From Longivirga aurantiaca (GTDB taxonomy: Bacteria; Actinomycetota; Actinomycetes; S36-B12; CAIYMF01): a stretch of DNA of 32,000 nt. The notes under the pieces are model-generated. The model saw only the letters and a list, made by a program, of their open reading frames with translations. It searched no databases and was not told the origin of the DNA. The stretch is from the NCBI RefSeq assembly GCF_042660085.1, contig NZ_JBHSTI010000008.1:270001-302000 (forward strand), read 5' to 3'. Shown here piece after piece: positions 3,629 to 32,000 of the stretch. The position numbers and the translations under genes were made by a program. Position 1 is the stretch's first letter. Each line of letters begins with the position of its first letter.

Positions 3629-3676
3629 GTCGTGCGCGGTCATGCGGATGCGCGCCCTGAACGAATCGAGATTCAC

Positions 3677-4402: not shown

Positions 4403-4465
4403 GCCTCGCCCGCCGTCCCCGACGAAGGTCCGATCGACAAGCCGTCCCCAGAGAAGGAGGCCCCC

Positions 4466-15681: not shown

Positions 15682-15746
15682 GAGTGAGGCTAACGTCCAT
15701 CGGAAAGGCAGGTCAAGGTGACCAGCCCCGACGCGCGAAGGCCGAC

Positions 15747-16697: not shown

Positions 16698-17437
16698 GCC
16701 AGACCCTGGATCGAGCCCTGCAGATCCTTGACTACGTGGGGGAGAAGCCGCGGCGCATCGCGGAGATCGCGGAGTTCCTCAACGTCCATCACTCGACGGC
16801 GCTCCGCTTCCTGCACACGCTGCGAAACCACGGGTTCGTGCACGAGCTGCCCGACCACCGGTACCGCCTCGGCGCGGCGATGTTCCGACTGGGCTTCCAG
16901 GCGCTGGACGGGCTCGAGCTGAGGTCAGTGGCCCGACCGGCGATGGAACGCCTGAGCGCCGCGACGGGCGAGACCGTTCACCTCGGTGCGCTCGAGGACG
17001 GCGATGTCGTGTACATCGAGAAGGTCGAGTCGCAGCACCCGGTGCGCACCGTGTCCCGCATCGGTGCGATCGCCACCCTGCACTGCGCCGGAGTGTCCAA
17101 GGCCATCCTCGCGTTCCTTCCCGAGGCGGAGCGGGAGGCGTTGCTCGCCTCGCACGAGCTGGTGCGGCGGACCGACCACACCCTCACCAGCAGGGAGGCG
17201 TTGGAGGCCGATCTCGCGCTGAGCCGCGAGCGCGGTTACGTGCTGGACGACGAGGAGAACGAGCCCGGGATCCACTGCGTGTCCGCCCCCATCTTCTCGG
17301 GCGACGGGGAGGTCGCCGGCTCGATGAGCGTGTCGACGCCGATCAGCCGCATCGACCGGGACGCCCTGCTCGGCTTCGTCCCCGCGCTGCTCGACGCCAC
17401 ACGGTCCACGTCGGCGATGCTGGGCTGGAGCGGCTGA
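16694..17437 (+). CDS. IclR-family transcriptional regulator (KdgR-like)
   Basis: Frame of ORF 16664..17437. ATG 16694 forms an ATGA overlap with the kinase stop. LDRALQILDYVGEKPRRIAEIAEFLNVHHSTALRFLHTL is a winged HTH, followed by an IclR effector domain. Confidence 0.85.
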   Translation: MSQTLDRALQILDYVGEKPRRIAEIAEFLNVHHSTALRFLHTLRNHGFVHELPDHRYRLGAAMFRLGFQALDGLELRSVARPAMERLSAATGETVHLGALEDGDVVYIEKVESQHPVRTVSRIGAIATLHCAGVSKAILAFLPEAEREALLASHELVRRTDHTLTSREALEADLALSRERGYVLDDEENEPGIHCVSAPIFSGDGEVAGSMSVSTPISRIDRDALLGFVPALLDATRSTSAMLGWSG

Positions 17438-18051
17438 TGCAGCTGCGGACCGTCGCAATCCTGCGATCCTTCGGCCCGGAGCGGTCGCGCGAGCTCGCTC
17501 TGCGTTGCTGGGACATCGGCGTCGACCTGGTGGAGGTGCCCGTCCAGGACGACAGGGGCTGGGCCTCCCTGGCGGCCGTTGCCGCTGTGTCGGAGGGGCG
17601 ACCCTTCGGCGCCGGCACCGTGCTCACCACCCACGACTCGCATCGCGCCACCGATGCCGGAGCCTCGGTGGTCATCAGCCCGGGGATCGATGCTGCGGTC
17701 GTCGAGGCCGCCCGGGCCGCGGGGGCGATGCCGCTGCCCGGAGTGTTGACCCCGACGGACGTGACGCTCGCGCACTCCCTCGGCCTGTCCGTGTGCAAGC
17801 TGTTCCCGGCGTCGCAGGTGGGACCCGCCTGGCTCGGGGACATCCGCGGCCCGTTCCCCGCCATGCGGTTCGTCGCCGTCGGGGGCGTGGACCACGTCAC
17901 TGCCGCGGACTACCTGCGGGCCGGCGCTGCCGGGGTCGGCTTCGGCTCGAGCATCGAACGAGTCCTGCAGGCGTCCGACCCGGCCGGGATCATCGCCGGG
18001 CTGCATGCGCTGTGCTCGCCGCCGGGGGCAGCGCCGGATGTACTGATGTAA
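17437..18051 (+). CDS. eda: KDPG/KHG aldolase (paralog 2)
   Basis: ORF track, 204 aa. TGATG overlap with the regulator stop. Motifs: VEVPVQD (Glu), GAGTV, CKLFPA (Lys), AVGGV. Confidence 0.8.
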   Translation: MQLRTVAILRSFGPERSRELALRCWDIGVDLVEVPVQDDRGWASLAAVAAVSEGRPFGAGTVLTTHDSHRATDAGASVVISPGIDAAVVEAARAAGAMPLPGVLTPTDVTLAHSLGLSVCKLFPASQVGPAWLGDIRGPFPAMRFVAVGGVDHVTAADYLRAGAAGVGFGSSIERVLQASDPAGIIAGLHALCSPPGAAPDVLM

Positions 18052-18140: not shown

Positions 18141-18905
18141 GTGAAGGTCCTGGTCTGTGTCACACAGACGCTCGAGGTGGCGACCTACCTCGAGTTCACC
18201 CCTGACGGGCGCGAGCTGGACCCTGCCTTCGTCACCGCTCTGGTGAACGAGGCGGATCTGTGCGCCGTCGAGGAGGCGCTAGGGCTCGTCGCGGCTGCCG
18301 GCGGCGGCGAGGTCGTCCTCGTCAGCGTCGGCGAGGACAGTGCCGAGGACGCGCTCCGCTCCGCGCTGGCGCTCGGTCCGGAGCGTGCTGTCCGGGTGTG
18401 GGGCGAGGGGGTCGTGCTCTCCGACGCCGGCTCGATCGCCGCCGCGCTGATGACCGCCGTCGAGGCCGAGTCCCCGGACCTCGTGCTCACCGGAGTCCAG
18501 TCGTCGGACACCGGCGCCCAGTCGGTCGGGCCGGCCCTCGCCGCGCGGTGGGGTGTCGCCTGCGTGCCCGTGGGCCGACGGCTGTCGGCGTCCGGATCGA
18601 CCCTCAGCCTGGAGCGCGAGTTCGAGGCCGGCCTCGTCGAGCGGGTCGAGGTGGATCTGCCCGCCCTGGTGACGGTTCAGGTCGGTGCCAACACGCCTCG
18701 CTACGGGACCTTCAAGGACAAGATGCGTGCGAAGAAGGCTGACATCGGCGTGCTCGAGCCCTCGGTGATGCCGCCGGCGCGGACGACGCTCACCCGCCTT
18801 GAGGCAGCTCCGCACGGCTCCGGCCGCTCGATCGAGCTCATCGAGGGCGGCCCGTCGGTCGTAGCCGCCCGCATCGTCGAACTGGTTCGGGAGGCCCAGT
18901 CGTGA
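18141..18905 (+). CDS. etfB: electron transfer flavoprotein, beta subunit
   Basis: ORF track, 254 aa, GGAGGG RBS. MKVLVCV... N-terminus, NEADLCAVEEAL, and DLVLTGVQSSD, typical of EtfB/FixA. Confidence 0.85.
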   Translation: MKVLVCVTQTLEVATYLEFTPDGRELDPAFVTALVNEADLCAVEEALGLVAAAGGGEVVLVSVGEDSAEDALRSALALGPERAVRVWGEGVVLSDAGSIAAALMTAVEAESPDLVLTGVQSSDTGAQSVGPALAARWGVACVPVGRRLSASGSTLSLEREFEAGLVERVEVDLPALVTVQVGANTPRYGTFKDKMRAKKADIGVLEPSVMPPARTTLTRLEAAPHGSGRSIELIEGGPSVVAARIVELVREAQS

Positions 18906-19846
18906 CCCGTTCCCTGGTCCTTGCCGAGGTGGTGGACGGCGTCCTCGCCCCCGTGACAGCGCAGGCGGTCGCGGCCGCCGTGGGCCTGGGCGGCGACATC
19001 GTCCTCGGCCTCGTCGCGCAGGACCCTGAGGCGCTCGTCCTTGCCGCTTCTCTGGCGGGTGTCACCGAGATCGTGACGGTCGCGGTCCCAGGGACGGACC
19101 GTGATCACGAGCAGGCGCTCCAGGCGGCCGTGGCCCTCGTGGCCGACGTCCGGCCCGATCAGGTGATCGCCGGATTCACCATCCGTTCCTCGTCCTACGC
19201 GGCCGCACTCGGTCACGTCCTGGACGTGGGCGTGATCACCGACGCGATCGCCCTGCGCCGTGACGACTCACAGAACCTGGTCGCGACACGGTCGGTCTAC
19301 GACGGCCGCGTCCAGGCCGAGGTGGTGCTCGACGGCTCCCGGCCGGGCGTCGTCCTGGTACGCCCGTCGTCCTGGGAGCCCGTCGAGCCCGGTGGCGCAC
19401 CGGTCGTACGGGCGCTGAGCGTCGAGATCGCCCCATCGCGTGTTCGCTCCGTCGAGCTCGTTCGGCCGTCGGGCGACGTCGACCTCGCGCGCGCCGACGT
19501 GATCCTCTCGATCGGTCGCGGAGTGGGGAGCCAGGAGAACGTGGCTGTCTTCGCGGACGTTGCGGCCAGGCTGGGTGTGGCGCTGGGTGCCTCGCGGCCG
19601 ATCGTCGATGCCGGATGGCTGCCGGCGGCGCACCAGGTCGGGCAGACCGGTTCGACCGTGAAGCCCCGCCTGTACCTGGCCTTCGGCATCTCCGGCGCGC
19701 TGCACCACCTGGCGGGTATGCAGAACAGCCGGACCATCCTGGTCGTGAACTCCGACAGGAACGCCCCGCTCTTCGGCCACGCCGATGTCGGTGCCGTCGA
19801 GGATATCCATGACGTCGTCGAGCAGCTCAACCTGCTGCTCGCCTAG
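18902..19846 (+). CDS. etfA: electron transfer flavoprotein, alpha subunit
   Basis: ORF track, 314 aa. GTGA overlap with etfB. C-terminal FAD domain: GASRPIVDAGWLP...QVGQTGSTVKPRLYLAFGISGALHHLAGM. Confidence 0.85.
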   Translation: MTRSLVLAEVVDGVLAPVTAQAVAAAVGLGGDIVLGLVAQDPEALVLAASLAGVTEIVTVAVPGTDRDHEQALQAAVALVADVRPDQVIAGFTIRSSSYAAALGHVLDVGVITDAIALRRDDSQNLVATRSVYDGRVQAEVVLDGSRPGVVLVRPSSWEPVEPGGAPVVRALSVEIAPSRVRSVELVRPSGDVDLARADVILSIGRGVGSQENVAVFADVAARLGVALGASRPIVDAGWLPAAHQVGQTGSTVKPRLYLAFGISGALHHLAGMQNSRTILVVNSDRNAPLFGHADVGAVEDIHDVVEQLNLLLA

Positions 19847-19873: not shown

Positions 19874-21499
19874 GTGAGCACGCACGATGTGCCAGACGTA
19901 CTCATCATCGGCGCGGGAGCGTCGGGCGGTGTCGCGGCCAAGCATCTGGCCGAGGAAGGCCTCAGCGTCGTCATCCTCGAACAGGGGAACTGGGTCGACC
20001 AGAGCGACATGCCCGGGCTCCGTCCGGAGTACGAGCTCCTCGGCAGCGGTCCCTGGCATCCGAACCCCAACGTTCGTAACCGCCCCGAGGACTACCCGGT
20101 CAATCTCGACGACAGCGCGGCGGTCATCGGGATGTTCAACGGCGTCGGCGGCAGCACGGTCCTGTACGCCAGCTGCTGGTGCCGCGCCAAGCCGTCGGAC
20201 TTCCGCGTGCGCACGCTCGACGGCGTGGCCGACGACTGGCCGTTGTCGTACGAGGAGCTCGCCCCCTTCTACGCGCAGGTCGAGCTGGAGCTCGGGATCT
20301 CGGGTCAGCCAGGGAACCCGGCCTACCCGCCGGGCTACGCGCCGCCGCTCCCCTCGCTGCCCATCAACATGGCGGGACGCGTCATGGCGCAGGGCATGAA
20401 CAAGCTGGGCTGGCACTGGTGGCCCGGCTACAACTCGATCGCCTCCCGTGACCATCTGCATCAGAAGCAGTGCCAGCGCCTCGGCGTGTGCATGTACGGA
20501 TGCCCTGAGGGGGCCAAGGGCTCGAGCGACGTAGCCCTCATCCCCGATGCGCTGGCGCACGGTGCGCGGCTCGAGACCGGCGCCCGCGTCGCCCAGATCA
20601 CCCTGGACGAGAAGGGCCGTGCCAGCGGAGCCGTCTACTTCAAGGACGGCAAGGAGCACTTCCAGCCGGCCAAGGTCGTGCTCGTGGGCGCCAACGGTGT
20701 CGGGACGCCACGACTTCTGCTGATGAGCGAGTCCAACCGGTTCCCGGACGGGCTCGCGAACAGCTCGGGCCTCGTCGGCAAGCGGTTCATGACACATCCG
20801 TTCGGCACATCCGTCGGTCTCTACGAGGACGATCTCGAGGACTGGGTCGGCCCAACCGGCGAGGCGATCGAGTCGATGCAGTTCTACGAGACCGATGCCT
20901 CGCGCGGATTCGTGCGCGGCAGCAAGTGGCACATCATCCCGTCCGCGGGGCGCCCCCTCGGCATGATCAACCGCTTCACGATGGGGGAGGCGGGTGTCGC
21001 GGACGAGCCGTTCTGGGGGGAGCCCTTCACCGACCGGATGAGGTCGTCCGTCGGGCACCTCATCGAGTGGATGATCATGCCCGACGACCTGCCGGAGGAG
21101 ACGAACTTCATCTCGCTCGACCGGTCGATGTCCGACTCCGACGGTCTTCCCGCCGCCAAGGTCACCTACGTGACATCGGAGAACACGCGTCGGCTCGTCG
21201 ACTGGAACCTCCAGCGGAGCCTCGAGGCGCACGAGGCCGCCGGGGCGACGAAGGCGTGGATCACCAACCGCAACAACCCCTCGTGGCACAACATGGGCAC
21301 CGCCAAGATGGGCGACGACCGTGAGACCTCGGTCGTGGACCGTTGGGGTCGGACCCATGACGTCCCGAACCTCTACGTCATCGACGGGAGCCAGTTCCCC
21401 ACGGCGACGGGAGTCAATCCGACCGCGACGATCTGTGCGCTGGCCAAGCGGACGGCGACGTTCATCGCGAACAACCGTGACCAGGTGGTGGCGTGGTGA
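19874..21499 (+). CDS. GMC-family FAD-dependent dehydrogenase, large subunit (copy 2)
   Basis: ORF track, 541 aa, GTG start after GGGAGGA. By eye it is roughly two thirds to 70% identical in protein to copy 1 over most of its length. The last 22 codons are identical at the nucleotide level. Confidence 0.85.
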   Translation: MSTHDVPDVLIIGAGASGGVAAKHLAEEGLSVVILEQGNWVDQSDMPGLRPEYELLGSGPWHPNPNVRNRPEDYPVNLDDSAAVIGMFNGVGGSTVLYASCWCRAKPSDFRVRTLDGVADDWPLSYEELAPFYAQVELELGISGQPGNPAYPPGYAPPLPSLPINMAGRVMAQGMNKLGWHWWPGYNSIASRDHLHQKQCQRLGVCMYGCPEGAKGSSDVALIPDALAHGARLETGARVAQITLDEKGRASGAVYFKDGKEHFQPAKVVLVGANGVGTPRLLLMSESNRFPDGLANSSGLVGKRFMTHPFGTSVGLYEDDLEDWVGPTGEAIESMQFYETDASRGFVRGSKWHIIPSAGRPLGMINRFTMGEAGVADEPFWGEPFTDRMRSSVGHLIEWMIMPDDLPEETNFISLDRSMSDSDGLPAAKVTYVTSENTRRLVDWNLQRSLEAHEAAGATKAWITNRNNPSWHNMGTAKMGDDRETSVVDRWGRTHDVPNLYVIDGSQFPTATGVNPTATICALAKRTATFIANNRDQVVAW

Positions 21500-21944
21500 G
21501 CGTGGATGTGTCCGTGCAGGGTTCGGTGCCGCTCACCGCGGAGCAGCGGGCCCGGTTGTCCGCGCTGGCCGACGTCCTGATCCGCGGCGGTGCCGGTCTG
21601 CCCTCGGCCAGCGAGGCGGAGGTGCACTCGGTGTGGATCGACCGGGTGTTCGTGGCGCGCCCGGACATGGAGGTCGTGGTGCGCGGGGTGCTGGACGTGG
21701 CTGGGGATGCCGAGTCGGTCGTGGCCGGTCTGCGGGCCTCGGACGCGGAGCGGTTCTCGGCGTTCGCGTTCGCGGTCGCGGGGGCGTGGCTGATCAATCC
21801 GCGGGTGCGTCGTGAGCTGGGCTACCCGGGCCCGGTGCCGATGCGTCAGCCCGCCCTGCCCGACGAGGCCGACGCCTATCTCGAGGACGGCATCCTCGAC
21901 GTCGTCATCGCCCGAGGCCCCATCTACCGCCCCACCCCGGACGC
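21431..21944 (+). repeat. 514-bp direct repeat, copy B (partner 7560-8073)
   Basis: See copy A. Identity stops at 21944, one base before the TGA stop of small-subunit copy 2. Confidence 0.9.
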
Positions 21945-21954: not shown

Positions 21955-22908
21955 TTATGGGCGGGCCGGCTCATGCCAGGTCAGGAAGCGCGCGGGGTTG
22001 TCGACGGTGATCCGGCGTACCGACTCGTCGTCGAGGCCCTCGCGGCGTAGCCACGGGATGAGTCGCCACGGGATGTAGCTGTAGCCGGGCCCACCACCCC
22101 ACGACACCAGCGAGCTGCGTCGTGCCAGGTCGCCGGACAGGGTGATGTGGTCGACCAGGCCGTCCTCGACGAGGCGGAGGATCGCTTGGACTCGGGCGGA
22201 GTCCGGCTCGTACCACTCCTTCGACACGCAGTCGTAGCCGAGTGTGAACCCGTCCCGCGCCAAGGCGCGGTGCTCCGCCACGTCCAGCCTGCGGTCGAGA
22301 TGACCGAGCGTGACGCGCTGCGGATCGGCGCCGGCACGGGTGAGGACCCGGGCCTGGTCGACGGCCATCGTCCCGGCCGTCGTATGGGTGGTGATCGGCG
22401 CGCCCGTGACGACCTGCGCCCGGGCTGCTGCAGTGAGGACGCGCTCCTCGGCGGCAGTCACGGTGTCCCGGGAGCTGCCTGCCTTGATCACCCCCGCGCG
22501 TACGCCGGTGGCACCGATCCCCTCGGTGAGCTCGACCGTCATCTCCTCGACGAGCTGGTCGACCCCGCGGTCCTCGATGTCGAGAACCCCGGACCAGTAG
22601 TCGACGGACACGTGGCCGGTGGTGGCGACGACATGCACCCCGGAGGCGCGCGAGATGCGCGCGAGAGCGGCGACGTCGCGGCCGAACTCGGCGACCGTCA
22701 CCTCGACGAGGGCCCCGCCTCCGGCCGAGCGGTAGATGGCCACCTCCTCGGTCGCGCGAGCCTCGTCGTCGAGCAGCAGGTCGTCGTTGTCGCGCAGCCG
22801 AGGCGCGGGGGCGGTCATGAGGTGCTCGTGGCAGAGCGTCAGACCGAGAGCCGTCGGTGGGATGTCACCGAGCACCGTCCGTACGAATGCTTGACCCGTC
22901 ATGGTCAC
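21955..22908 (-). CDS. phosphotriesterase-homology protein (amidohydrolase superfamily, Php/YhfV-like; possible lactonase)
   Basis: ORF track, 317 aa. HxH motif in LTLCHEHL, with later metal-ligand contexts (TTHT, GHLD, LSGD). The start may be ATG 22902 if the transcript is leaderless. Confidence 0.8.
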   Translation of the reverse strand: MTMTGQAFVRTVLGDIPPTALGLTLCHEHLMTAPAPRLRDNDDLLLDDEARATEEVAIYRSAGGGALVEVTVAEFGRDVAALARISRASGVHVVATTGHVSVDYWSGVLDIEDRGVDQLVEEMTVELTEGIGATGVRAGVIKAGSSRDTVTAAEERVLTAAARAQVVTGAPITTHTTAGTMAVDQARVLTRAGADPQRVTLGHLDRRLDVAEHRALARDGFTLGYDCVSKEWYEPDSARVQAILRLVEDGLVDHITLSGDLARRSSLVSWGGGPGYSYIPWRLIPWLRREGLDDESVRRITVDNPARFLTWHEPARP

Positions 22909-22929: not shown

Positions 22930-23901
22930 ATGATGACGAGACCATCGGAGCAGGACGTGGTGCAACGGCTCTACTTCGTGGGCGTCTCCACGGCCGCCTC
23001 CGGCATCATGACCATCTTCCCCGCCTGGGCCGAGGCGCTCGGCCTCCGCGCCGAGATGCACGGCGTCGATCTCCCCGTGCAGGCCCGCCCGGACGACGTG
23101 CGCGCGGTGATCGACACCCTGGCAGTCGACCCGCAGGCAGTCGGCGCGCTCGTGACGACGCACAAGGCCGCGGTCTGGGACGCCGCCTCGGACCGCTTCT
23201 CCGAACTCGACCCCTGGGCGCAGGTGTGTCGCGAGATCTCGTGCATCGCGGTGCGCGACCGGGGTCTGATCGGCTGGGCGAAGGACCCGATCACCTCGCG
23301 CCAGGCGTACACGCACCTGCTCGGCGAGGACCCCTGGGGCGGCGGTGAGCGCGATCTGGTCTGCCTCGGCGCGGGTGGTGCCGGGCTGGCTCTGGCCGCG
23401 GCAGTCCTGGACGGCGGGCACCAGCCGCGCCGGGTGGTGCTCGCCGACCGGGACCCCGGGCGACTGACGGTCTCCCGGGAGGTGCTCGACCAGCTCGACG
23501 TTCGGGCAGAGCTCGAGCTCGTCGTCACGAGCAGCCCGGAGCAGGCCGGGGACCTGGTGTCGGCGTCCGCCGAGGGCTCCCTGGTCGTGAACGCCACGGG
23601 CATGGGCAAGGACCTGCCCGGCTCGCCGGTCGGGCCGGACGCGGTCTTCCCCCGGGGCGCGGTGGCGTGGGACATGAACTACCGAGGCGACCTGGCGTTC
23701 CTGGACATCGCGAGGGCGCAGCAGCTCGAGCGGGGTCTCGTAGTCGCCGACGGGTGGCGCTACTTCCTCCACGGCTGGACCGAGGTCATCGCCGAGCTGT
23801 TCGGCGTCGCGATGTCCCCCGACGTGTTCGCCGAGCTCGCCTCAATCGCCGGTCAGGTGTCGGGTCGGGAGGTGGGCAGTGCCGGCGTCAGCCGTGGCTG
23901 A
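22930..23901 (+). CDS. shikimate/quinate-dehydrogenase-family protein (divergent member)
   Basis: ORF track, 323 aa. VTTHKAAV resembles the NVTxPxK motif, CLGAGGAGLALAAAVL resembles the NAD(P) loop, and VNATGMG is also present. The N-terminal substrate motif is atypical. Confidence 0.6.
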   Translation: MMTRPSEQDVVQRLYFVGVSTAASGIMTIFPAWAEALGLRAEMHGVDLPVQARPDDVRAVIDTLAVDPQAVGALVTTHKAAVWDAASDRFSELDPWAQVCREISCIAVRDRGLIGWAKDPITSRQAYTHLLGEDPWGGGERDLVCLGAGGAGLALAAAVLDGGHQPRRVVLADRDPGRLTVSREVLDQLDVRAELELVVTSSPEQAGDLVSASAEGSLVVNATGMGKDLPGSPVGPDAVFPRGAVAWDMNYRGDLAFLDIARAQQLERGLVVADGWRYFLHGWTEVIAELFGVAMSPDVFAELASIAGQVSGREVGSAGVSRG

Positions 23902-24679
23902 GGGAGTCGACCCCCGCGGAGCTGCGGCTGTCGCGGACGACGTCCATCTCGATGCGCATGCGGTCGGCCCGGTGCCAGGCCAGGAAGCACTCGATGACAT
24001 CGCCCGCAGCGTTGCGGGCCACCGACTCGATGTAGAGCAGCGGGTCGCCGGGGCCGACCTCCAGAAGCTTGGTCAGCATGCCCGAGGCGGCGACCGCCTC
24101 GATGGACCGATGGCCGGTGTCGATGCGCAGGCCGAACTGGTCGGACAGGATGCGGTACAGCGACACCGTGGCGAGGTCGGCCGCGCGCAGCTGCGTCAGG
24201 ATGGCCTCGTCGTCGCGGGCGATGTAGGACTTGGTGAAGGCGACGACCTCGTCATTGACAGCCCGGAGCCGGACGATCTCGATGCAGTGCGTACCGGGAG
24301 CGGCGCCGATCAGCTCACGAGCCCGCCCCACGACCTCGACACGGTCGATCGACAGGACGCTGCTCGAGACCGAGTGCCCATGGCTGGTCATGTCCTCGAA
24401 GAAGCCGACGGTGCTCTCCATGAACTGCTCGGAGAGCTTCGGCTTCGCCACGAAGGTGCCCTTGCCGCGCATCCGCTGCAGGACTCGCTCGTTGACCAGC
24501 TCGCCGACGGCCTGCCGCACCACGGTCCGCGAGACGCCGTAGCGCGCGCACATCTCGGCCTCGGACGGCATCAGGTGGCCGGGCTCGAGGTTGTCGCGCG
24601 CGATCTCGCGCACGATCAACTGCTTGAGCTGCTCGTAGTAGGGCAGCCGGGCGTCGTGGTCGATCCCCAGGTCCGTCAC
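23888..24679 (-). CDS. GntR-family regulator, HutC subfamily (UTRA effector domain)
   Basis: ORF track, 263 aa. PYYEQLKQLIVREIARDNLEPGHLMPSEAEMCARYGVSRTVVRQAVGELVNERVLQRMRGKGTFV is a winged HTH, followed by a UTRA-like C-terminal half. Confidence 0.85.
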   Translation of the reverse strand: MTDLGIDHDARLPYYEQLKQLIVREIARDNLEPGHLMPSEAEMCARYGVSRTVVRQAVGELVNERVLQRMRGKGTFVAKPKLSEQFMESTVGFFEDMTSHGHSVSSSVLSIDRVEVVGRARELIGAAPGTHCIEIVRLRAVNDEVVAFTKSYIARDDEAILTQLRAADLATVSLYRILSDQFGLRIDTGHRSIEAVAASGMLTKLLEVGPGDPLLYIESVARNAAGDVIECFLAWHRADRMRIEMDVVRDSRSSAGVDSLSHG

Positions 24680-24700
24680 GGGGTAGAACGTAACATCCGG

Positions 24701-24709
24701 TCATGACGT
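24701..24709. promoter_or_regulatory. TCATGACGT half-site in the gntR / yhfU-like divergent region
   Basis: Its reverse complement ACGTCATGA is identical to 3619-3627, inside the palindrome at 3613-3628. Confidence 0.3.
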
Positions 24710-24779
24710 CCTGTCGTCTCCCCGGTGGCACTCGCCGACCTGATCCCACCACCGCACGTACACGAGGAAAGAAGGCCTG

Positions 24780-25184
24780 ATGGTCAAGGAACGGCTCGTT
24801 CGCGTCGTCGTCGCTGGTGTCGATGCCCCCTCCATGGCGCAGCTCGCCACGAACGCGGGCGGAGGCCGGGTGGAGGCGGCCGCGCTCGGCGACATGCAGG
24901 GCGCTCGGCTGGTCAAGAAGGGTCAGGCCGACTACTACCTCGGCACCTGCTGGTCCGGCGGCGGCGGAGCGCTGGCTGCGGCCACCGCCATCCTGGGCGC
25001 CAACCTCGTGGGGATCGTCGGAACACCCGGCATGATCGTCACGGAGGAGCGGGTGCGGACCGCGGTAGGCGAGGGCCGCATCGCCTTCGGGTTCGCCTAC
25101 GAGCAGTCGACGGCCGCGATCCCCATGATCATCAGCGAGATCCTCGCCCACCGCGATGCGCTTGGCGGAGGCACGGATGACTGA
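24780..25184 (+). CDS. DUF2620 / YhfU-like protein
   Basis: ORF track, 134 aa, AGGAAAGAAGG RBS. GQADYYLGTCWSGGGGALAAATAILG and GRIAFGF...AIPMII resemble my memory of E. coli YhfU. This needs an HMM check. Confidence 0.55.
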   Translation: MVKERLVRVVVAGVDAPSMAQLATNAGGGRVEAAALGDMQGARLVKKGQADYYLGTCWSGGGGALAAATAILGANLVGIVGTPGMIVTEERVRTAVGEGRIAFGFAYEQSTAAIPMIISEILAHRDALGGGTDD

Positions 25185-25599
25185 GTCGGCCCCCACCTCG
25201 GCCGCAGCACTCGCGGCGGTGGCCGCCGAGTTCGCCGAGAGGCTCGATCTGCTCGAGGAGAGCGGGCAGGTGACCAACCTCGCCCGCCGTCTCACCGAGC
25301 TGTGCCTCGCAGAGCTGGCGACCGACCTCGGTCTCACGCTGACCGAGGACAACGCCGCCCAGTTCGTCACCCATCTCGCCATCGCCCTCACCCGCATCAA
25401 CCGGGGCGACCCCGAGATCGCGTCGTCGGTCGTGGCGGCGGAGGAGATCGCGGACCGAACGCGCGAGCACGATGCGGTGATGCGCGTCATGCACGACGCC
25501 TCGCGCCTGCTCCAGCGCGAGGTCCCCGAGTCGGAGATCACCTTCATGACGGTCCACCTCTGCGGCTTGGTCGACGAGAAGGCAGCGTCCGGAGCGTGA
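25177..25599 (+). CDS. stand-alone PRD-like protein (YhfY-like)
   Basis: Frame of ORF 25156..25599. ATG 25177 overlaps the upstream stop by 8 nt. The protein looks all-helical. Two His residues in PRD-like contexts (FVTHLAIAL and FMTVHLCGL) lie 61 residues apart. Confidence 0.5.
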   Translation: MTESAPTSAAALAAVAAEFAERLDLLEESGQVTNLARRLTELCLAELATDLGLTLTEDNAAQFVTHLAIALTRINRGDPEIASSVVAAEEIADRTREHDAVMRVMHDASRLLQREVPESEITFMTVHLCGLVDEKAASGA

Positions 25600-26801
25600 T
25601 GAGGCGCGCGGTCATCGTGGTCATCGACGGCTTCGGCATCGGGGCGACGCCGGACGCCGGCCCAGCCGACCTCGGGATGAACACGCTGGCGCACGTCGCT
25701 GACGCCGTCGACCTCCGGCTGCCGGTGCTCGCGTCGCTGGGCCTCGGACGTCTCGTGCCCGACGCGGTCGAGCCGGTGCAGGAACCGCGTGCGGCATACG
25801 GCCGGCTCACGCCTGTGCACATCGGCGCGGACACGTACATGGGCCATCAGGAGCTCATGGGCGGTGGCCTCTCACGGGTCGAGTTCCGGCTCATGGAGGA
25901 GCTCGGCGACGACGTCGCCGCGGCCCTCCGGTCCGCAGGGCACACGGTGGAACCCCTCGTCGTCGGGCAGTCGATGCTGCTGGTGGACGGTGCCGTGGTG
26001 GTGCACGACAACATCGAGGCACGTGCGCGGCTCAACGTGAACGTGACCGCGTCACTCGACGACATCGACTTCGACGCCCTTACCGAGATCGGGTTGATCG
26101 TGCGGCGCGCGATCAACGTCTCGCGGGTGATCGTCGTCGGGAGCCGCGGATACGACGTCGACAGCATCCGCTCCCACATCGTCCATCGCGGCGACGGGCA
26201 CATCGGCGTCGACACCCCGAGCCTCGGCGTCTACAACGAGCACTACCAGGTGCGGCACCTCGGACTCGACCTGCCGATCGAGCGTCAGCTCCCGATGCGG
26301 GTCAAGGACCAGGGCGGCGATGTCGTCCTGCTCGGCAAGGCCGCCGATGTGGTGAGGTGCGAGGGGGCGACCCTGGAGAACATCGTGCCGACGGACGGGG
26401 TGTTCGATGCCGCTGTGCGGCATCTCGACGGGTTGAGCCGCGGCCTGATCGTCGCGAACGTGCAGGAGTCCGACTTGGCGGGGCACGAGCAGGATGCCGC
26501 GCGCTACGCCCGCGTCCTGGCAACCGTCGACGCCAGGCTGCAGGAGCTGCTCGACCGTCTCGGACCCGACGACCTTCTCGTGATCACCGCCGATCACGGC
26601 AACGACCCGACCTCGGGCAGCAGCAGGCACACCCGCGAGTACGTACCGGTCCTCGTCCTCGGCCAGCAGCTACGCCCGGTCGATCTCGGGATCCGGTCGT
26701 CCCTGGCTGACGTGGGGGCCACCGTCGCGGAGCTCCTCGGCACCGAGCCACTCGATTCAGGCACGTCCTTCGCCCGGGAGATCCTGTGTTCATCGATGTG
26801 A
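25599..26801 (+). CDS. phosphopentomutase-family metalloenzyme (YhfW/DeoB-like mutase)
   Basis: Frame of ORF 25302..26801. ATG 25599 shares its A with the upstream TGA. Product is 400 aa. Motifs: VIVVIDGFGIGATPDA, MGHQELMGG, SDLAGHEQD, ITADHGNDPT. Confidence 0.75.
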   Translation: MRRAVIVVIDGFGIGATPDAGPADLGMNTLAHVADAVDLRLPVLASLGLGRLVPDAVEPVQEPRAAYGRLTPVHIGADTYMGHQELMGGGLSRVEFRLMEELGDDVAAALRSAGHTVEPLVVGQSMLLVDGAVVVHDNIEARARLNVNVTASLDDIDFDALTEIGLIVRRAINVSRVIVVGSRGYDVDSIRSHIVHRGDGHIGVDTPSLGVYNEHYQVRHLGLDLPIERQLPMRVKDQGGDVVLLGKAADVVRCEGATLENIVPTDGVFDAAVRHLDGLSRGLIVANVQESDLAGHEQDAARYARVLATVDARLQELLDRLGPDDLLVITADHGNDPTSGSSRHTREYVPVLVLGQQLRPVDLGIRSSLADVGATVAELLGTEPLDSGTSFAREILCSSM

Positions 26802-27994
26802 CCCTGCGCCGCAATCCCGAGCTCGTGGGCGCCGCCGTCGACCTCCATCAGGCGGGGCGGATCCCGTCGAACTGCTACGTGGTGGATCTGGACGCCGTGT
26901 CGAGGAATGCGGCGCTGGTCGCGCGATCAGCGGCGTCGCACGGACTCACGCCGTACCAGATGACCAAGCAGTTCGGTCGCAACCCGATCGTGGCCCGGGC
27001 CGTGGCAGCGGCGGGTATCGAGAAGGTGGTGGCGGTGGACTTCGAGGAAGCGCGGCTGCTCCACAGCCACGGGCTGCGCATCGGGCATCTGGGGCACCTC
27101 GTGCAGGTCCCGCGAGACGAGGTCGGCCTGGCCCTCGACATGGAGCCGGACTTCATCACGGTCTTCGGCCTGGCCCAGGCTGCCCGGCTGAGCGCGGCGG
27201 CAGTGGAGCGGGGGCTCGTGCAGGACGTCACCCTTCGCGTGGTCGGCCCGGACGACACGTTCTACGCCGCGCAGCGCGGCGGCGTGCCGGTGCACGAGGC
27301 GGTCGAGGTGGCGACCCGGATCCGGGACCTACCCGGCGTCCGTCTGCGCGGAGTCACGAGCTTCCCCGTGGTCCTGTGGGACGAGTCCGTCGGCGCGTTC
27401 GCGCCGACAGCCAACCTCTCCACGCTGGGTGCGGTCTCGCAGGCTCTGCGGGCCGCCGGGATCGACGTGGACGTCCTCAACGCCCCGAGTGCGTGCTGCA
27501 CCGCGACGTTCGGGATGAAGGCCGCAGCCGGTGCGACCCATGTGGAGCCAGGGAGCTGCCTCACCGGCCAGACACCGCTGCACGCGGTGAGCGACGAGCC
27601 CGAGCTCCCGGCCATGATCTACGTCTCGGAGGTGTCGCACACGACTGCCGACGCCGCCTACGCGATCGCCGGCGGCCTCTACCCACGGTGCAAGTCGCGC
27701 ACCGCGCTGGTGTACGACGAGGCCGGTGCCACCCCCCTCGTCGCCCAGGTCGAGCTCGACCCGGCCGAGGCGATCGACTACTACGGCACACTGCGTACGG
27801 ACGATCCGCCATCGGTGCGGGTCGGCAGCACCGTCGTCTACGCCTTCCGGGCGCAGGTCTTCGTGAGCAGGTGCTTCGTCGCGGTGGTGAGCGGCGTACA
27901 GGGGACCCCCACCGTGGAGGGCATCTTCACCAGCACGGGATTCCGGCTCGGCCCTGACCTGCTGCCGCTGTCGAACGGGAGAACCCACCCATGA
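26786..27994 (+). CDS. alanine-racemase-fold PLP-binding protein (YhfX-like)
   Basis: ORF track, 402 aa. MF..TLRRNPEL, MTKQFGRNP (candidate PLP Lys) and GHLGHLVQVP resemble my memory of E. coli YhfX. The alternative start GTG 26798 would give a GTGA overlap. Confidence 0.7.
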   Translation: MFIDVTLRRNPELVGAAVDLHQAGRIPSNCYVVDLDAVSRNAALVARSAASHGLTPYQMTKQFGRNPIVARAVAAAGIEKVVAVDFEEARLLHSHGLRIGHLGHLVQVPRDEVGLALDMEPDFITVFGLAQAARLSAAAVERGLVQDVTLRVVGPDDTFYAAQRGGVPVHEAVEVATRIRDLPGVRLRGVTSFPVVLWDESVGAFAPTANLSTLGAVSQALRAAGIDVDVLNAPSACCTATFGMKAAAGATHVEPGSCLTGQTPLHAVSDEPELPAMIYVSEVSHTTADAAYAIAGGLYPRCKSRTALVYDEAGATPLVAQVELDPAEAIDYYGTLRTDDPPSVRVGSTVVYAFRAQVFVSRCFVAVVSGVQGTPTVEGIFTSTGFRLGPDLLPLSNGRTHP

Positions 27995-28266
27995 CCGCCA
28001 TCCGTACCGCCGTCGTCGCCGATCCCCTGGGGCTCCACGCTCGTCCCGCAGCGGAGCTCGTGGCACAGGCCCGGGCCTACGAGTCCGACCTCGTCCTCGC
28101 GTCCGGCGAGAAGACGGGGAACTGCAAGAGCCTGCTGGCGGTGCTGAAACTGGGCATCGTGGGCGGCACCGAGGTGACGGTGACGGCAACGGGTCCCGAC
28201 GAAGCCGTCGCGGTCGAGGTGCTCGCCTCGTTCCTCGAGCTGGTCCACGGAGAAGGCACATCGTGA
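27991..28266 (+). CDS. ptsH: phosphocarrier protein HPr
   Basis: ORF track, 91 aa. ATGA overlap with the previous gene. Active-site GLHARPA (His16) and the Ser47 region GNCKSLLAVLKLG. Confidence 0.85.
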   Translation: MTAIRTAVVADPLGLHARPAAELVAQARAYESDLVLASGEKTGNCKSLLAVLKLGIVGGTEVTVTATGPDEAVAVEVLASFLELVHGEGTS

Positions 28267-29948
28267 TCGTCACCGGCATCCCCGTCTCGGGAGGGATCGC
28301 TGTCGGCCGTCTCGTGGTGGTGGGCGCGCTGATGCCGACCGACGTCGACTCCGTCTCGGTCTCAGAGTCCGGAGGAAGTGCCGAAGAGCGGATGACCCGG
28401 CTCGTTGCCGCCGTCGCCGCCAGCCGCCAGGAGATCTCGTCGATCGCGGCCCAGACGCGGCAGCGCATCGGGAGCGACCCGGCTGCGATCATCGAGGCCC
28501 AGCTGCTCGTGCTCGACGACCCCGAGTGGTGGGAGCCGATTCGTGACGAGGTGCTCGGCGGGGCGGAGCCGACGACCGCGGTGCGGTCGGTGACCGAGGC
28601 CGTGGCCGAGGCCCTCGCCTCGCTCGACGATCCCTACCTTCGCGAGCGGTCGGCCGACGTGCTCGACGTCGGCCAGCGCGTTGCGGGCCATCTCGTAGGC
28701 AGGTCCCGCACCCACGCGCTGCACGGTCAGACCGGCGATGTCGTGGTCGCAGCCCACGAGCTCACTCCGACCGACACCCTCGACCTCGACCTCGACGTCG
28801 TCCGCGGCATCGTGACCGAGGCCGGGGCCCGCACCTCGCACGCCGCCATCCTGGCGCGCCAGCTGGGGATCCCCGCTGTGGTCGGAGCCGTCGGGGTGCT
28901 GGAGGCCGCTGCTCCCGGTGTGGTCGTGGTGCTCGACGGCGATGCAGGCACGTGCGAGATCGATCCGGAGCCGCACGCCCTCGACCTGGCACGGGCCAGG
29001 TCCCTGGGGCGTGCGACGCCGTCCGTCATCACCCAGTCGGTGACGACCCGGGACGGCGTGCAGGTGCACGTGCTCGCGAACGCCTCCAGCGTCTCCGACG
29101 TCGAGCGGGCCGTGGCCGAGGGTGCGGACGGGATCGGGCTGTACCGGACCGAGTTCCTGTTCATGCGGTCGGACGGGCTGCCGGACGAGGCGACCCAGGC
29201 TGAGCACTACGCGGCGGTGGCCGAGGCTGCCGGTGGGCGTCCGGTGACCTTCCGGACCCTCGACGTCGGCGGCGACAAGCCGGTTCCCGGGCTCAAGATG
29301 GACCCCGAGGAGAACCCGTTCCTCGGAGTTCGCGGCATTCGCCTGACCCTGGCGAACCGTCCGGTGTTCGACGCGCAGCTGCGCGCGCTCGCGCGGACCT
29401 CCGATGCTTTCCCGGGCGTGTCGGTGATGGTTCCGATGGTCTCGGGGCTCGAGGAGCTCGACGACGTGCGCCGCGTCCTGCAGGACGTGGCGCCTCGGGT
29501 CGCGTTCCGCCTCGGCGCCATGGTCGAGGTGCCGAGTGCCGCGCTGCTGGTCGATGCCCTGGCGCGGGAGGTCGACTTCCTCTCGGTCGGTACCAACGAC
29601 CTCACCGCCTACCTGCTGGCGGCGGACCGCGGCAATCGCCACCTGCACGGGCTGTACTCGGAGTTCCATCCGGCCGTCCTTCGCGCGCTGCATCTCATCC
29701 GCGACGGCGCGAAGGAGACTCCCGTCAGCGTCTGCGGCGAGCTCGCAGGTGACCCGCGGGCTACGGGCCTGCTCATCGGCCTGGGGTATCGGCAGCTGTC
29801 CGTGTCAGGGCCGCTCGTGCCGGCTGTGAAGGAGCGGATCCGCACGATCGACACGGCGGCCGCCGAACGGGCGGCCGAGGAGCTGCTGAGAGCGCGCCGC
29901 CATCGCGATGTCGACGCGATCCTGGAGTCGCGCCCGTTCGAGGCTTGA
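28263..29948 (+). CDS. ptsI: PEP-protein phosphotransferase, PTS Enzyme I
   Basis: ORF track, 561 aa. GTGA overlap with ptsH. Motifs: GARTSHAAILARQLGIPAVVG (phospho-His), GIGLYRTEFLF, SVGTNDLTAY, and CGELAGDP in the C-terminal PEP-binding domain. Confidence 0.9.
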   Translation: MIVTGIPVSGGIAVGRLVVVGALMPTDVDSVSVSESGGSAEERMTRLVAAVAASRQEISSIAAQTRQRIGSDPAAIIEAQLLVLDDPEWWEPIRDEVLGGAEPTTAVRSVTEAVAEALASLDDPYLRERSADVLDVGQRVAGHLVGRSRTHALHGQTGDVVVAAHELTPTDTLDLDLDVVRGIVTEAGARTSHAAILARQLGIPAVVGAVGVLEAAAPGVVVVLDGDAGTCEIDPEPHALDLARARSLGRATPSVITQSVTTRDGVQVHVLANASSVSDVERAVAEGADGIGLYRTEFLFMRSDGLPDEATQAEHYAAVAEAAGGRPVTFRTLDVGGDKPVPGLKMDPEENPFLGVRGIRLTLANRPVFDAQLRALARTSDAFPGVSVMVPMVSGLEELDDVRRVLQDVAPRVAFRLGAMVEVPSAALLVDALAREVDFLSVGTNDLTAYLLAADRGNRHLHGLYSEFHPAVLRALHLIRDGAKETPVSVCGELAGDPRATGLLIGLGYRQLSVSGPLVPAVKERIRTIDTAAAERAAEELLRARRHRDVDAILESRPFEA

Positions 29949-29974: not shown

Positions 29975-30643
29975 TCAGCCTGGCGGCCGAGGGCGGACGT
30001 CCAGGTTGGCCAGCGAGCCCGTCCGAAGGACGCCCGAGGGGAACGTCTGGCTCAGCGTCCACTCGCTGGGTATCACCACGGTTGTCAGGCCCGCCGCGAC
30101 CGAGGCCTGCGCACCGGTGGCGGAGTCCTCCACCCCGACGGCGGCGCTCGGGCTCACGCCCAGACGGCGAAGTGCGGTGAGGTAGACGTCCGGCGCGGGC
30201 TTGGGGGCCGGACCGGCCGGACCTCCCCGCCCGACGACAGCACCGACGGCTGGCAGCAGGCCGAGCGCCTCGACGGCACGGGTGACCACCGAGAGATGAC
30301 TGGACGACGCGACCCCGACGGCGATGCCCCGGGCGGCCGCCCGGCGCACGAAGTCGACGGCGCCAGGCATGGGCGTGGGATCCGCGTAGAACCGAGCCAG
30401 CCCGTCCTCGCGGCGGCGCAGTAGGTCTGTGACGGCCACGGCCATGCCGTAGTGGGCGACGAGTGCAGCGTAGAGACGGCTCGCGGGGCGGCCGACGTGC
30501 AGGGCGAACAGCTCACGGTCGAGGTGCGCCCCCTCGTCGGCAAGAATCCCTCGGGCGACGTCGAACGCAGCAGTCTCGCTGTCGACGAGGAGGCCGTCGA
30601 GGTCGAGCACGACTGCGTCCGCCTCCAGCCCGAGCGTCGTCAT
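29975..30643 (-). CDS. HAD-superfamily hydrolase (beta-phosphoglucomutase/phosphatase-like)
   Basis: ORF track, 222 aa. Motifs: VVLDLDGLLVDSE (DxDG), VASSS, and VGVEDSATG. Confidence 0.75.
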   Translation of the reverse strand: MTTLGLEADAVVLDLDGLLVDSETAAFDVARGILADEGAHLDRELFALHVGRPASRLYAALVAHYGMAVAVTDLLRRREDGLARFYADPTPMPGAVDFVRRAAARGIAVGVASSSHLSVVTRAVEALGLLPAVGAVVGRGGPAGPAPKPAPDVYLTALRRLGVSPSAAVGVEDSATGAQASVAAGLTTVVIPSEWTLSQTFPSGVLRTGSLANLDVRPRPPG

Positions 30644-31584
30644 CAGCCAGCGACGTCGTAGAGCATCGGCTGCTTCGCCAGGCCGCGCATCAGCTCCTCG
30701 ACCGCCAGGACCCCGGCGCGCACGATGGCATCGACCGTTGCTGCCCCGCAGTGCGGGGTGAGGACCACGTTGGGCACGCCGCGCAGCAGGCTGTCATCGG
30801 GCAGTGGCTCCTGCTCGAAGCTGTCCAGGGCCGCCGCGGCCAGCGGCCCCTGCACGAGTGCCTGCGCGAGGGCGGCCTCGTCCACGATGCCGCCGCGGGC
30901 CGAGTTGACGAGCAGGCTGCCAGGTCGCATGGCGGCCAGGAAGGCCGCATCCACGAGGTGGTGGGTCTCGGGGGTGTACGGCGCGTGGATGGAGATGACA
31001 TCCGATCGTGCGAGCAGCTCGTCCAGACCGACCAGCGGGATGTCGCCGGCATCGGCCAGCGGGTCATGGCCGATCACCGTCATGCCGAAGGCGCGAGCGC
31101 GAACAGCCACGTCGCGTCCGATGCGTCCGGTGCCGACGAGCCCGAGGGTGCGCCCGGCGAGCTCGATGCCGCTCGGCCGGGACCAGGAGCCCGCGCGGAT
31201 CGCGCGGTCCATCGTCGTGATCGACCGCGCAGCCGTGAGCATCAGCCCCAGGGTGAGTTCGGCGACGGACGTGGTGGTGGCACCCACGGTGCGCGACACG
31301 CGGATCCCCAGCTCGTCGGCGACCGCGAGATCGACGTTGTCCGTCCCGATGCCGAACCGCACGATCGTCGTGAGGTGCGTCGCCTGCCGGAGCACGGGCT
31401 CGGACGCGTCGTCCACTCCGAGGATCACCCCCGTGCAGCCCACGAGGAGCTCGGACAGCTCGTCCGCGGTAAGGGGGCGCTGCTGGGTGGCGTAGCGGAC
31501 TTCCATGCCGCTCGACGCGAGCAGGTCCCGGTGCGGACCCGGCGTCTCGCGGAAGCCGCGAGGGGTGACGGCGACCGTGGTCAC
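30643..31584 (-). CDS. D-isomer-specific 2-hydroxyacid dehydrogenase (PGDH-like)
   Basis: ORF track, 313 aa. Motifs: GRTLGLVGTGRIGRDVA (NAD loop), the SARG...VDE and TPHCG catalytic Arg/Glu/His pattern. Confidence 0.85.
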   Translation of the reverse strand: MTTVAVTPRGFRETPGPHRDLLASSGMEVRYATQQRPLTADELSELLVGCTGVILGVDDASEPVLRQATHLTTIVRFGIGTDNVDLAVADELGIRVSRTVGATTTSVAELTLGLMLTAARSITTMDRAIRAGSWSRPSGIELAGRTLGLVGTGRIGRDVAVRARAFGMTVIGHDPLADAGDIPLVGLDELLARSDVISIHAPYTPETHHLVDAAFLAAMRPGSLLVNSARGGIVDEAALAQALVQGPLAAAALDSFEQEPLPDDSLLRGVPNVVLTPHCGAATVDAIVRAGVLAVEELMRGLAKQPMLYDVAG

Positions 31585-32000
31585 GAGGCCACGTATCGCG
31601 GATTGGGCCGGACCTCGGGGCCCTCCTCCCCTTCGACGACGATCACCGGGAACCCGCGCTCGGCGATCGTCGCGTAGTCGTACCCGGCATCGCCGATGTA
31701 GACGGCGTAGAAGACAAGGGGCGTGGTCCCGGTGTTCACCGAGCGATGCGCCCAGTGGCCGGGCACGTAGTTGGCGATGCCTGGGCGCATCTCCTTCGTG
31801 ACGGTCCTGCCGTCCTCGAGGGCCATGACGAGCAGCCCCTCTCCCGACAACGTCAGGTAGATCTCGGCGCGATCCCGGATGGCGTGGAAGTGCCCCTTCG
31901 TGAAGAAGTACTCGTCGCCGACCTTGCCCGGCGCCAGGACCGTGGTCGACGAGAGCAGGTTGTTCCCCGTCGGGGGCACGCGGACCTCGTGCACGGTATA
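31581..32000 (-). CDS. cupin-type glucose-6-phosphate isomerase-like protein, C-terminal part (gene probably continues past the right edge)
   Basis: ORF 31581..31994. TKGHFH...RAEIY...VPGHWAHRSVNTG...DAGYDYATIAERGF matches the TxGHxH / PxxWAHR cupin PGI signature known from archaeal cPGI. The frame stays open to the window end. Confidence 0.6.
   Translation of the reverse strand, partial: YTVHEVRVPPTGNNLLSSTTVLAPGKVGDEYFFTKGHFHAIRDRAEIYLTLSGEGLLVMALEDGRTVTKEMRPGIANYVPGHWAHRSVNTGTTPLVFYAVYIGDAGYDYATIAERGFPVIVVEGEEGPEVRPNPRYVAS

Follow-up and report, generated by a model that had tools for sequence, protein, structure and literature searches.

The window analysed here, 32,000 nucleotides (nt) of contig NZ_JBHSTI010000008.1 of Longivirga aurantiaca (positions 270,001 to 302,000), carries a six-gene operon in which four genes of the yhf family, yhfU, yhfY, yhfW and yhfX, are joined to ptsH and ptsI, the genes for HPr and Enzyme I (EI) of the phosphoenolpyruvate (PEP)-dependent phosphotransferase system (PTS). 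We tentatively read this locus as the actinobacterial form of the conserved yhfS-Z catabolic cluster, which would have acquired an EI/HPr pair dedicated to it. We know of no function assigned to the yhfS-Z operon since the E. coli genome was sequenced. The explanation that we favour, with similar reservation, is a phosphate relay from PEP through EI and HPr to His66 of the stand-alone PRD protein YhfY, and on to Cys57 of YhfU and a substrate; such a relay would serve as the kinase of a pathway that encodes none. In our judgement the arrangement constitutes a new PTS organisation, with EI and HPr accompanied by a stand-alone PRD protein and an RpiB-fold cysteine protein and by no Enzyme II, within the known and uncharacterised yhfS-Z family.

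The six genes lie on the + strand between 24780 and 29948 and overlap at all five junctions, exactly as the original prediction, made from the letters of the DNA, had described them. The yhfY ATG (25177) precedes the yhfU stop codon (25182-25184), and the A of the yhfW ATG (25599) is shared with the TGA of yhfY (25597-25599). yhfX begins at a GTG (26786) placed 16 nt within yhfW, which ends at 26801, while the yhfX/ptsH and ptsH/ptsI junctions consist of an ATGA (27991-27994) and a GTGA (28263-28266), respectively. A GGAG-type Shine-Dalgarno sequence stands 6-13 nt 5' of every start, and the yhf enzymes and EI/HPr are predicted to be translationally coupled. A promoter and terminator scan, a method ill-suited to high-GC DNA such as this (GC fraction 0.68-0.73 in the window), found none in or around the operon. 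The same sequence is present in an independent assembly (L083), and the nearest relatives of the window belong to Nanopelagicales and Nocardioides-type Actinomycetota.

Every product scored above curated Pfam or NCBIfam cut-offs in the family that had been proposed for it from motifs. YhfU (134 amino acids (aa), 24780-25184) is a DUF2620 protein that covers profile positions 1-115 of 115 (PF10941, E 5.9e-30), and YhfY (140 aa, 25177-25599) consists of a single stand-alone PRD (PF00874, E 1.8e-9, 38.2 bits against a cut-off of 23). YhfW (400 aa, 25599-26801) is a phosphopentomutase-family metalloenzyme (Pfam Metalloenzyme) that matches the NCBIfam phosphopentomutase model NF009049 with 438 bits against a cut-off of 254, and YhfX (402 aa, 26786-27994) is a fold-type III pyridoxal-phosphate (PLP) protein with Ala_racemase_N and YhfX-like_C domains. 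HPr (91 aa, 27991-28266) scores 84 bits with PF00381 and 76.6 with TIGR01003 (cut-off 47.9), and EI (561 aa, 28263-29948) exceeds the cut-offs for all three of its domains, namely the N-terminal one that binds HPr (PF05524), the mobile one with the His (PF00391) and the C-terminal one that binds PEP (PF02896), and reaches 470 bits with TIGR01417 (cut-off 342). In EI, His193 (28839-28841; GARTSHAAILA) and Cys491 (29733-29735; VCGELAG) align with His189 and Cys502 of the E. coli enzyme; in HPr, alignment to the E. coli protein places His16 (28036-28038) in GLHARPA and Ser47 (28129-28131) in CKSLL. Complete and with the active-site His, His and Cys present, EI and HPr both look functional.

A canonical sugar PTS likewise has complete EI and HPr with their catalytic residues in one operon with catabolic enzymes. 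However, the Pfam scan of all plausible genes in the window gave no EIIA, EIIB or EIIC domain, in agreement with the claim that no recognisable Enzyme II was present, and none was found within 10 kb in nine annotated loci (L083, L087, L091, L092, L093, L096, L097, L098 and L099). The candidate acceptors are instead a PRD protein and an RpiB-like Cys protein, and no solved structure corresponds to the fold of the membrane protein YhfT.

The yhf genes themselves have homologues in the yhfS-Z cluster of E. coli K-12 (b3376-b3383), all of whose genes are still labelled putative or uncharacterised by RefSeq. YhfT, YhfU, the phosphotriesterase-homology protein (PHP), YhfW, YhfX and YhfY are 28-40% identical between the two (YhfU 34%, YhfW and YhfX 40% each). 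In E. coli, ptsHI lies about 1 Mb from the yhf cluster, whereas in the window it is appended to the operon. E. coli has YhfZ where a GntR/UTRA regulator is found here, and yhfT is here split off together with a short-chain dehydrogenase (SDR) gene, 19 kb away. Additional conserved partners compared with E. coli are a shikimate-dehydrogenase-like protein, a HAD hydrolase, a 2-hydroxyacid dehydrogenase, a cupin isomerase, a class III aminotransferase and a SIS protein.

Among 1.84 billion representative proteins searched, only 174 DUF2620 relatives were found, and the window proteins were mapped onto 80 genomic loci encoding YhfU relatives. This survey found ptsHI in the yhf clusters of many Actinomycetota, of Chloroflexota and of Treponema, which supports the earlier proposal that the yhf pathway is tied to a PEP relay. 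The six-gene order including ptsHI is found in at least eight actinobacterial genera, with examples in Nocardioides, Arthrobacter, Streptomyces, Microbispora, Sphaerisporangium, Blastococcus, Nanopelagicales and several metagenome-assembled genomes. All but one of the actinobacterial loci with enough flanking sequence have yhfU-yhfY-yhfW-yhfX-ptsH-ptsI, and Pfam-annotated contigs confirm the operon in Arthrobacter, Streptomyces, Nocardioides pyridinolyticus, a Blastococcus genome and a marine lineage in which yhfU and yhfY are fused. An iterated HPr hidden Markov model (HMM) search caught off-frame open reading frames of high-GC DNA, including an apparent HPr in an uncultured Nocardioides locus (L008) that proved to be false; tblastn and the Pfam-annotated contigs were used in its place. 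One locus, L003 (CALQEM020000016.1), is titled a Bifidobacterium breve metagenome-assembled genome and carries a cluster of the Nanopelagicales/Nocardioides type with 72-90% protein identity to the window (HPr 72%, YhfU 90%); this bin is probably mislabelled or contaminated.

Outside these genera the PTS genes are attached in other ways. A yhf cluster from Thermoleophilaceae also contains EI, in the Chloroflexota the genes for PRD, HPr and EI make up a separate operon, a Treponema locus has yhfX-yhfW-HPr-EI at its end, and a Fusobacteriaceae locus has HPr alone after yhfW. The latter HPr paralogue (L060, 12548-12850) is not followed by an EI and has Lys at the Ser46 position. In Firmicutes and other phyla the cluster is compact and lacks PTS genes; its gene order is yhfZ, yhfY, yhfU, yhfT, in some cases a gene for an amidase-like protein, then php, yhfS, yhfX and yhfW. 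Among Actinomycetota and Chloroflexota the EIs share 46-54% identity, against only 35-38% with those of Treponema and E. coli (36-38% between Treponema and the Actinomycetota); the Treponema and E. coli enzymes are 41% identical. This pattern indicates that ptsHI was recruited into yhf clusters at least twice, with an independent event in Treponema, and the comparison as a whole argues that the linkage is not due to chance. Of the 80 loci, 78 contain a stand-alone PRD gene, which in 62 is the direct neighbour of yhfU; a YhfT gene likewise neighbours yhfU in 62. Complete yhf clusters also occur on the Entomospira plasmids p53 and p118 (L047 and L071), so the cluster can be plasmid-borne.

Of the products of the cluster, only YhfY contains a domain that HPr is known to phosphorylate. 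Its His66 (25372-25374), in the motif THLAxALxR, is invariant in all 81 YhfY sequences taken from the loci, while the second canonical histidine, His127 (25555-25557), is kept in 88% of them and is lost in E. coli, Treponema and a Fusobacteriaceae sequence. The best NCBIfam match of YhfY is the PRD-II region of GlcT, and PRD-II of GlcT is the type of PRD that is phosphorylated by HPr. Since it combines an invariant His with a PRD-II-type match and shares an operon with HPr and EI in Chloroflexota, YhfY is likely the best candidate phosphate acceptor. YhfY thus shares a PRD with a conserved phosphorylatable His with the regulators BglG/LicT/GlcT and MtlR/LicR/LevR. Unlike them, it has a single PRD and is fused to DUF2620 in one lineage. 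All 62 listed homologues are 116-144 aa long and consist of the PRD only, and no output domain (DNA- or RNA-binding CAT or helix-turn-helix domain, or AAA+ domain) was found in these 62 or in the 81 aligned sequences.

The next candidate carrier is YhfU. In an alignment of 35 sequences, Cys57 (24948-24950) is invariant within DYYLGxCx[ST]GGGGAL, as are G60-G63, D38, P83-G84 and the AFGF motif. An AlphaFold2 (AF2) model of YhfU, with a predicted local distance difference test (pLDDT) score of 91, finds its best solved matches in RpiB ribose-5-phosphate isomerases, which occupy Foldseek ranks 1-14 and 16-21 (E 1e-4 to 2e-3, template-modelling (TM) score 0.60-0.67). The C57-W-S-G-G-G loop follows strand 3 (residues 52-57) and aligns with the CGTGxG loop of RpiB. 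YhfU therefore resembles the RpiB/LacAB proteins in its modelled fold, in the C-x-[ST]-G-x-G loop after strand 3 and in the AFG strand. In contrast to them, it has neither the His and Asn that open the sugar ring nor the C-terminal Arg/His residues that bind phosphate: on inspection of an hhalign alignment, the YhfU positions opposite RpiB His99 and Asn100 are not conserved, and YhfU ends before Arg133-Arg137. That alignment, made with a single E. coli RpiB sequence (E 0.065, not significant), was used for residue placement only. YhfU also differs in having no match to Pfam LacAB_rpiB, DUF2620 being its sole hit at E<=0.01, and in its genetic association with a PRD protein and with a membrane protein.

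PTS EIIB proteins are absent from the top 50 Foldseek matches of YhfU, and hhalign against UlaB (a single E. coli sequence) aligned 16 columns only, with E 0.15. In EIIB proteins of the Lac/Cel, Gat and Asc types the phospho-Cys lies at the end of strand 1 of a four-stranded fold, whereas the YhfU cysteine follows strand 3. There is hence no fold support for YhfU as an EIIB, although its modelled Cys/Gly loop is still compatible with a phospho-cysteine.

A natural fusion connects the two candidates. DUF2620-PRD (YhfU-YhfY) proteins of 267-268 aa, which retain the Cys and both histidines and have a linker rich in Ala, Pro and Ser, were found on 14 contigs from three sources (JGI, ENA and Logan). 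In a marine metagenome lineage (L093, fusion gene at 4243-5049) the locus reads YhfT-SDR-dehydrogenase, GntR, and fusion-YhfW-YhfX-HPr-EI, so that yhfT and the SDR gene are kept beside the regulator. The fusion ties the PRD protein to YhfU and not obviously to YhfT. Other apparent fusions were rejected. P0267 (413 aa, E. coli-like), which would join PHP to YhfU, is a read-through in which the php stop codon is passed and the intergenic spacer translated; as a singleton cluster from one source (Logan), it is probably a mutation or a sequencing error. P0302 and P0379 are fragment chimeras. Taken together, the invariant His, the Chloroflexota operon, the fusion and the co-occurrence in the 80 loci indicate that EI-HPr is linked to YhfY, and YhfY to YhfU.

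YhfT (466 aa) is a polytopic membrane protein encoded at 4466-5866 on the + strand, 19 kb upstream of yhfU (PF10797, E 1.8e-78). Its AF2 model (pLDDT 89) matched no solved structure in Foldseek (best E 0.23), including no solved EIIC such as UlaA or ChbC, and hhalign against UlaA (a single E. coli sequence) was not significant. Searches of the PDB with single sequences and with profiles gave no meaningful match for YhfT, for YhfY or for YhfU, RpiB being absent from the results for the last. YhfT thus appears, as far as its model goes, to have a membrane fold without an experimental representative. Of the two mechanisms originally proposed, that with the PRD protein as target of HPr gained support from the invariant His, the PRD-II type and the Chloroflexota operon, while that with YhfT and YhfU as an EIIC/EIIB-like pair was left without fold support, because YhfU models as RpiB-like and YhfT matches no solved structure.

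In the relay that we propose, PEP would phosphorylate EI at His193, EI would phosphorylate HPr at His16, and HPr~P would phosphorylate YhfY at His66. YhfY would then work directly with YhfU, the phosphate probably being passed to Cys57 in the glycine-rich loop. Acting as the absent kinase of the pathway, the relay would deliver PEP-derived phosphate to the substrate, probably an amino sugar or amino polyol, either in the cytoplasm or during uptake at the transporter YhfT. The phosphorylated intermediates would afterwards be processed by PHP and the YhfW mutase, together with the SIS, cupin-isomerase, HAD and aldolase enzymes encoded nearby. Each phosphotransfer beyond HPr, and the fate of the phosphate, is what we infer from the parts and genetic linkages observed above. 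A precedent for the cytoplasmic variant is DhaKLM, where dedicated carrier subunits encoded in a catabolic operon let EI and HPr phosphorylate a substrate in the cytoplasm, with no EIIC involved. Unlike in that system, no Pfam families for Dak1, Dak2 or EIIA-Man-like DhaM were found in the window, and the carriers here would be of new types.

Several observations favour this relay. No kinase is encoded in the Firmicute, Treponema and E. coli clusters, and none within 10 kb in most actinobacterial loci; the pfkB genes of the window and of L096 sit in a separate kinase-IclR-aldolase module. Several members of the cluster come from families that act on phosphorylated substrates, namely YhfW and PHP and, in Actinomycetota, also the SIS, cupin-isomerase, HAD and KDPG-aldolase-type proteins. 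Relatives of PHP are stated in PMC10971088, citing Korczynska 2014, to hydrolyse pentonolactone 5-phosphates. The relay is thus favoured because the cluster has no kinase and contains families for phosphorylated substrates, and because EI/HPr is the only phosphoryl donor encoded and is translationally coupled to the enzymes.

However, a number of points weigh against it. To our knowledge, PRD domains are known only as regulatory modules, with no case of one that passes phosphate on to a substrate. YhfU may simply be an isomerase, since its RpiB-like model (Foldseek E 1e-4, TM 0.60-0.67) keeps the C-x-[ST]-G-x-G loop, and no EIIB stands among its 50 best fold matches. The substrate might be imported already phosphorylated, or the kinase might be encoded elsewhere. 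In the uncultured Nocardioides locus L008, the one exception noted above, yhfU-Y-W-X occurs without ptsHI and an aldolase gene takes its place. Finally, judging from the gene layout, yhfT of Actinomycetota is not co-transcribed with yhfU and yhfY.

An alternative that we rate almost as likely as the relay is that the PRD protein forms a purely regulatory switch, in which EI and HPr would report the PEP/pyruvate state and the phosphate would stop at His66 of YhfY. YhfY~P would then toggle a partner (YhfU, YhfT or the regulator) by protein contact, and the substrate would not be phosphorylated by the relay. The PRD is the sole domain of the cluster with an established role as a PTS acceptor, YhfY matches the HPr-targeted PRD-II type, and yhfY adjoins the regulator gene yhfZ in E. 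coli and Firmicutes. The enzyme-like character of YhfU, the lack of resemblance between YhfT and EIIC, and the separation of yhfT from yhfU and yhfY in Actinomycetota point in the same direction. PTS branches that serve only regulation exist, such as PTS-Ntr, and regulators of the MtlR/LicR type join PRD domains to Cys-containing EIIB-like domains. On the other hand, neither YhfY nor its homologues carry an output domain for binding DNA or RNA, EI and HPr are produced solely along with the very enzymes that would be regulated, and YhfY has been kept while the regulator was exchanged from YhfZ to GntR/UTRA. A switch would also leave the absent kinase unexplained.

It is unlikely, in our estimate, that YhfY, YhfU and YhfT together form an eighth kind of PTS Enzyme II that imports and phosphorylates the yhf substrate. 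The PRD (His~P) would then act as EIIA, the RpiB-fold protein (Cys~P) as EIIB and the new-fold membrane protein as EIIC. This reading would also cover E. coli and the Firmicutes, with the gene order yhfY-yhfU-yhfT.

We consider it improbable that these are the genome's general ptsH and ptsI, which serve canonical Enzyme II permeases elsewhere and merely share the yhf operon. EI and HPr are without unusual domains, only 32 kb of the genome has been seen, so that Enzyme II genes could lie elsewhere, and Arthrobacter and Streptomyces have sugar PTS permeases. However, the linkage is kept across many genera and in three operon layouts, it arose again independently in Treponema, the Chloroflexota pair the PRD gene directly with HPr and EI, and the nine annotated loci are free of Enzyme II domains within 10 kb. 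Most improbable of all is another target of HPr~P, whether by priming of the phospho-Thr/Ser intermediate of YhfW or by modification of YhfT or GntR with unrelated roles for YhfY and YhfU: phosphopentomutase-family enzymes do act via a phospho-enzyme, and ptsH-ptsI directly follows yhfW-yhfX in Actinomycetota and yhfX-yhfW in Treponema, but YhfW, YhfX, YhfT and GntR have no recognisable PTS-type acceptor motif, in Chloroflexota HPr-EI has the PRD gene as its neighbour, with yhfW and yhfX far off on the other strand, and the invariant YhfY His and the YhfU-YhfY fusion would go unexplained.

The surroundings of the operon are conserved as well. Just upstream, the predicted php and regulator genes were both recovered. 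The HutC-type GntR/UTRA regulator (23888-24679, - strand; Pfam GntR and UTRA) is divergent from yhfU, adjoins it in all actinobacterial loci examined and stands in for E. coli YhfZ. The region between the two genes (24680-24779) is a putative divergent control region. Alignment of intergenic regions reveals in it a 21-nt motif (24690-24710) that is kept in the closest relatives, along with a GACGTC-centred palindrome (24702-24713). Chance would predict 0.01 occurrences of the motif in the window; it is found there once, and a GntR operator shared by the yhfU promoter and the distant yhfT region was therefore rejected. Next to the regulator, a 323-aa protein (22930-23901, + strand) has weak NCBIfam matches to shikimate dehydrogenase (best E 1.8e-10, below cut-off) and obtained no family in the Pfam scan; in Actinomycetota its gene is invariably flanked by php and the GntR gene, and it is kept in L001-L008. 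PHP (317 aa, 21955-22908, - strand; Pfam PTE, E 3.6e-62) has NCBIfam matches below cut-off to E. coli PHP (PRK09875) and to phospho-furanose lactonase.

Downstream, a HAD-family hydrolase gene (29975-30643, - strand; Pfam HAD) is convergent with ptsI and is kept in L002, L003, L006, L083 and L091. It is followed on the same strand by a D-2-hydroxyacid dehydrogenase gene (30643-31584; Pfam 2-Hacid_dh), part of a conserved downstream operon and kept in L083, L091, L092, L093, L096 and L098, and by a cupin-type glucose-6-phosphate-isomerase-like gene (31581-32000; Pfam GPI) that is cut by the end of the window. The independent assembly L083 continues past this edge with the cupin isomerase, then a YhfS-like_C PLP protein, then a class III aminotransferase (Aminotran_3). 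With YhfT in the window and a YhfS-like gene just past its right edge, every member of the E. coli set (YhfS, T, U, PHP, W, X and Y) is accounted for, within a conserved island that extends over some 35 kb and whose gene order is confirmed by two Nocardioides isolate genomes. The original prediction had overlooked YhfT with its SDR, the YhfS just beyond the edge and the YhfU-YhfY fusion.

The SDR gene that accompanies yhfT (3632-4402, + strand; Pfam adh_short) is paired with it also in Chloroflexota (L087), in the marine locus L093 and in Nocardioides (L099); the yhfT neighbourhood of the window is matched in Nocardioides aquiterrae (L099). Beside this pair, both here and in N. aquiterrae, lies a gene for a solute-binding-type protein (Peripla_BP_4, 1533-2849) without adjacent ABC permease genes, which might be a partner of YhfT. 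Between yhfT and php, a PfkB kinase (pfkB, 15684-16697), an IclR regulator and a KDPG-type aldolase (15684-18051) form a separate sugar-acid module within the island, and the genes for the alpha and beta subunits of an electron-transfer flavoprotein (ETF) follow at 18141-19846. The window further contains a direct repeat of 517 nt with two mismatches (7557-8073 and 21428-21944), which spans the 3' ends of two paralogous GMC oxidoreductase genes (67% identical overall) and the entire small open reading frame after each. The two small products are identical over 151 of 151 aa and have no Pfam family, while the identity of the GMC paralogues climbs from 62% to 100% toward the repeated block, which suggests gene conversion or an assembly effect. 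A chimeric window, suspected from this repeat, was rejected because the two Nocardioides isolate genomes keep the gene order on both sides.

A further point of comparison is offered by the EF_0829-EF_0833 clusters, which we take to combine a PRD protein with a glycine-rich SFCGS protein bearing a Cys/Gly loop and with DUF4310/4311/4312 membrane proteins. YhfU matches the EF_0830 model TIGR03577 with E 2e-4, far below cut-off, and belongs to a different family; some DUF2620 proteins also match Pfam PF14272. No functional study of yhfT, yhfU, yhfW, yhfX, yhfY, DUF2620 or SFCGS was found in the searchable literature.

The comparative evidence turns the orphan yhf pathway into a specific and cheap question, that is, whether phosphate passes from HPr~P to His66 of YhfY and from there to Cys57 of YhfU. 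If the regulatory reading is true, it would give the stand-alone PRD proteins of this family their first role. If the relay is true, it would represent a new type of phosphocarrier chain in the PTS, and possibly a new Enzyme II family. Either outcome would explain the presence of EI and HPr in bacteria that seemingly have no PTS-type sugar permeases.

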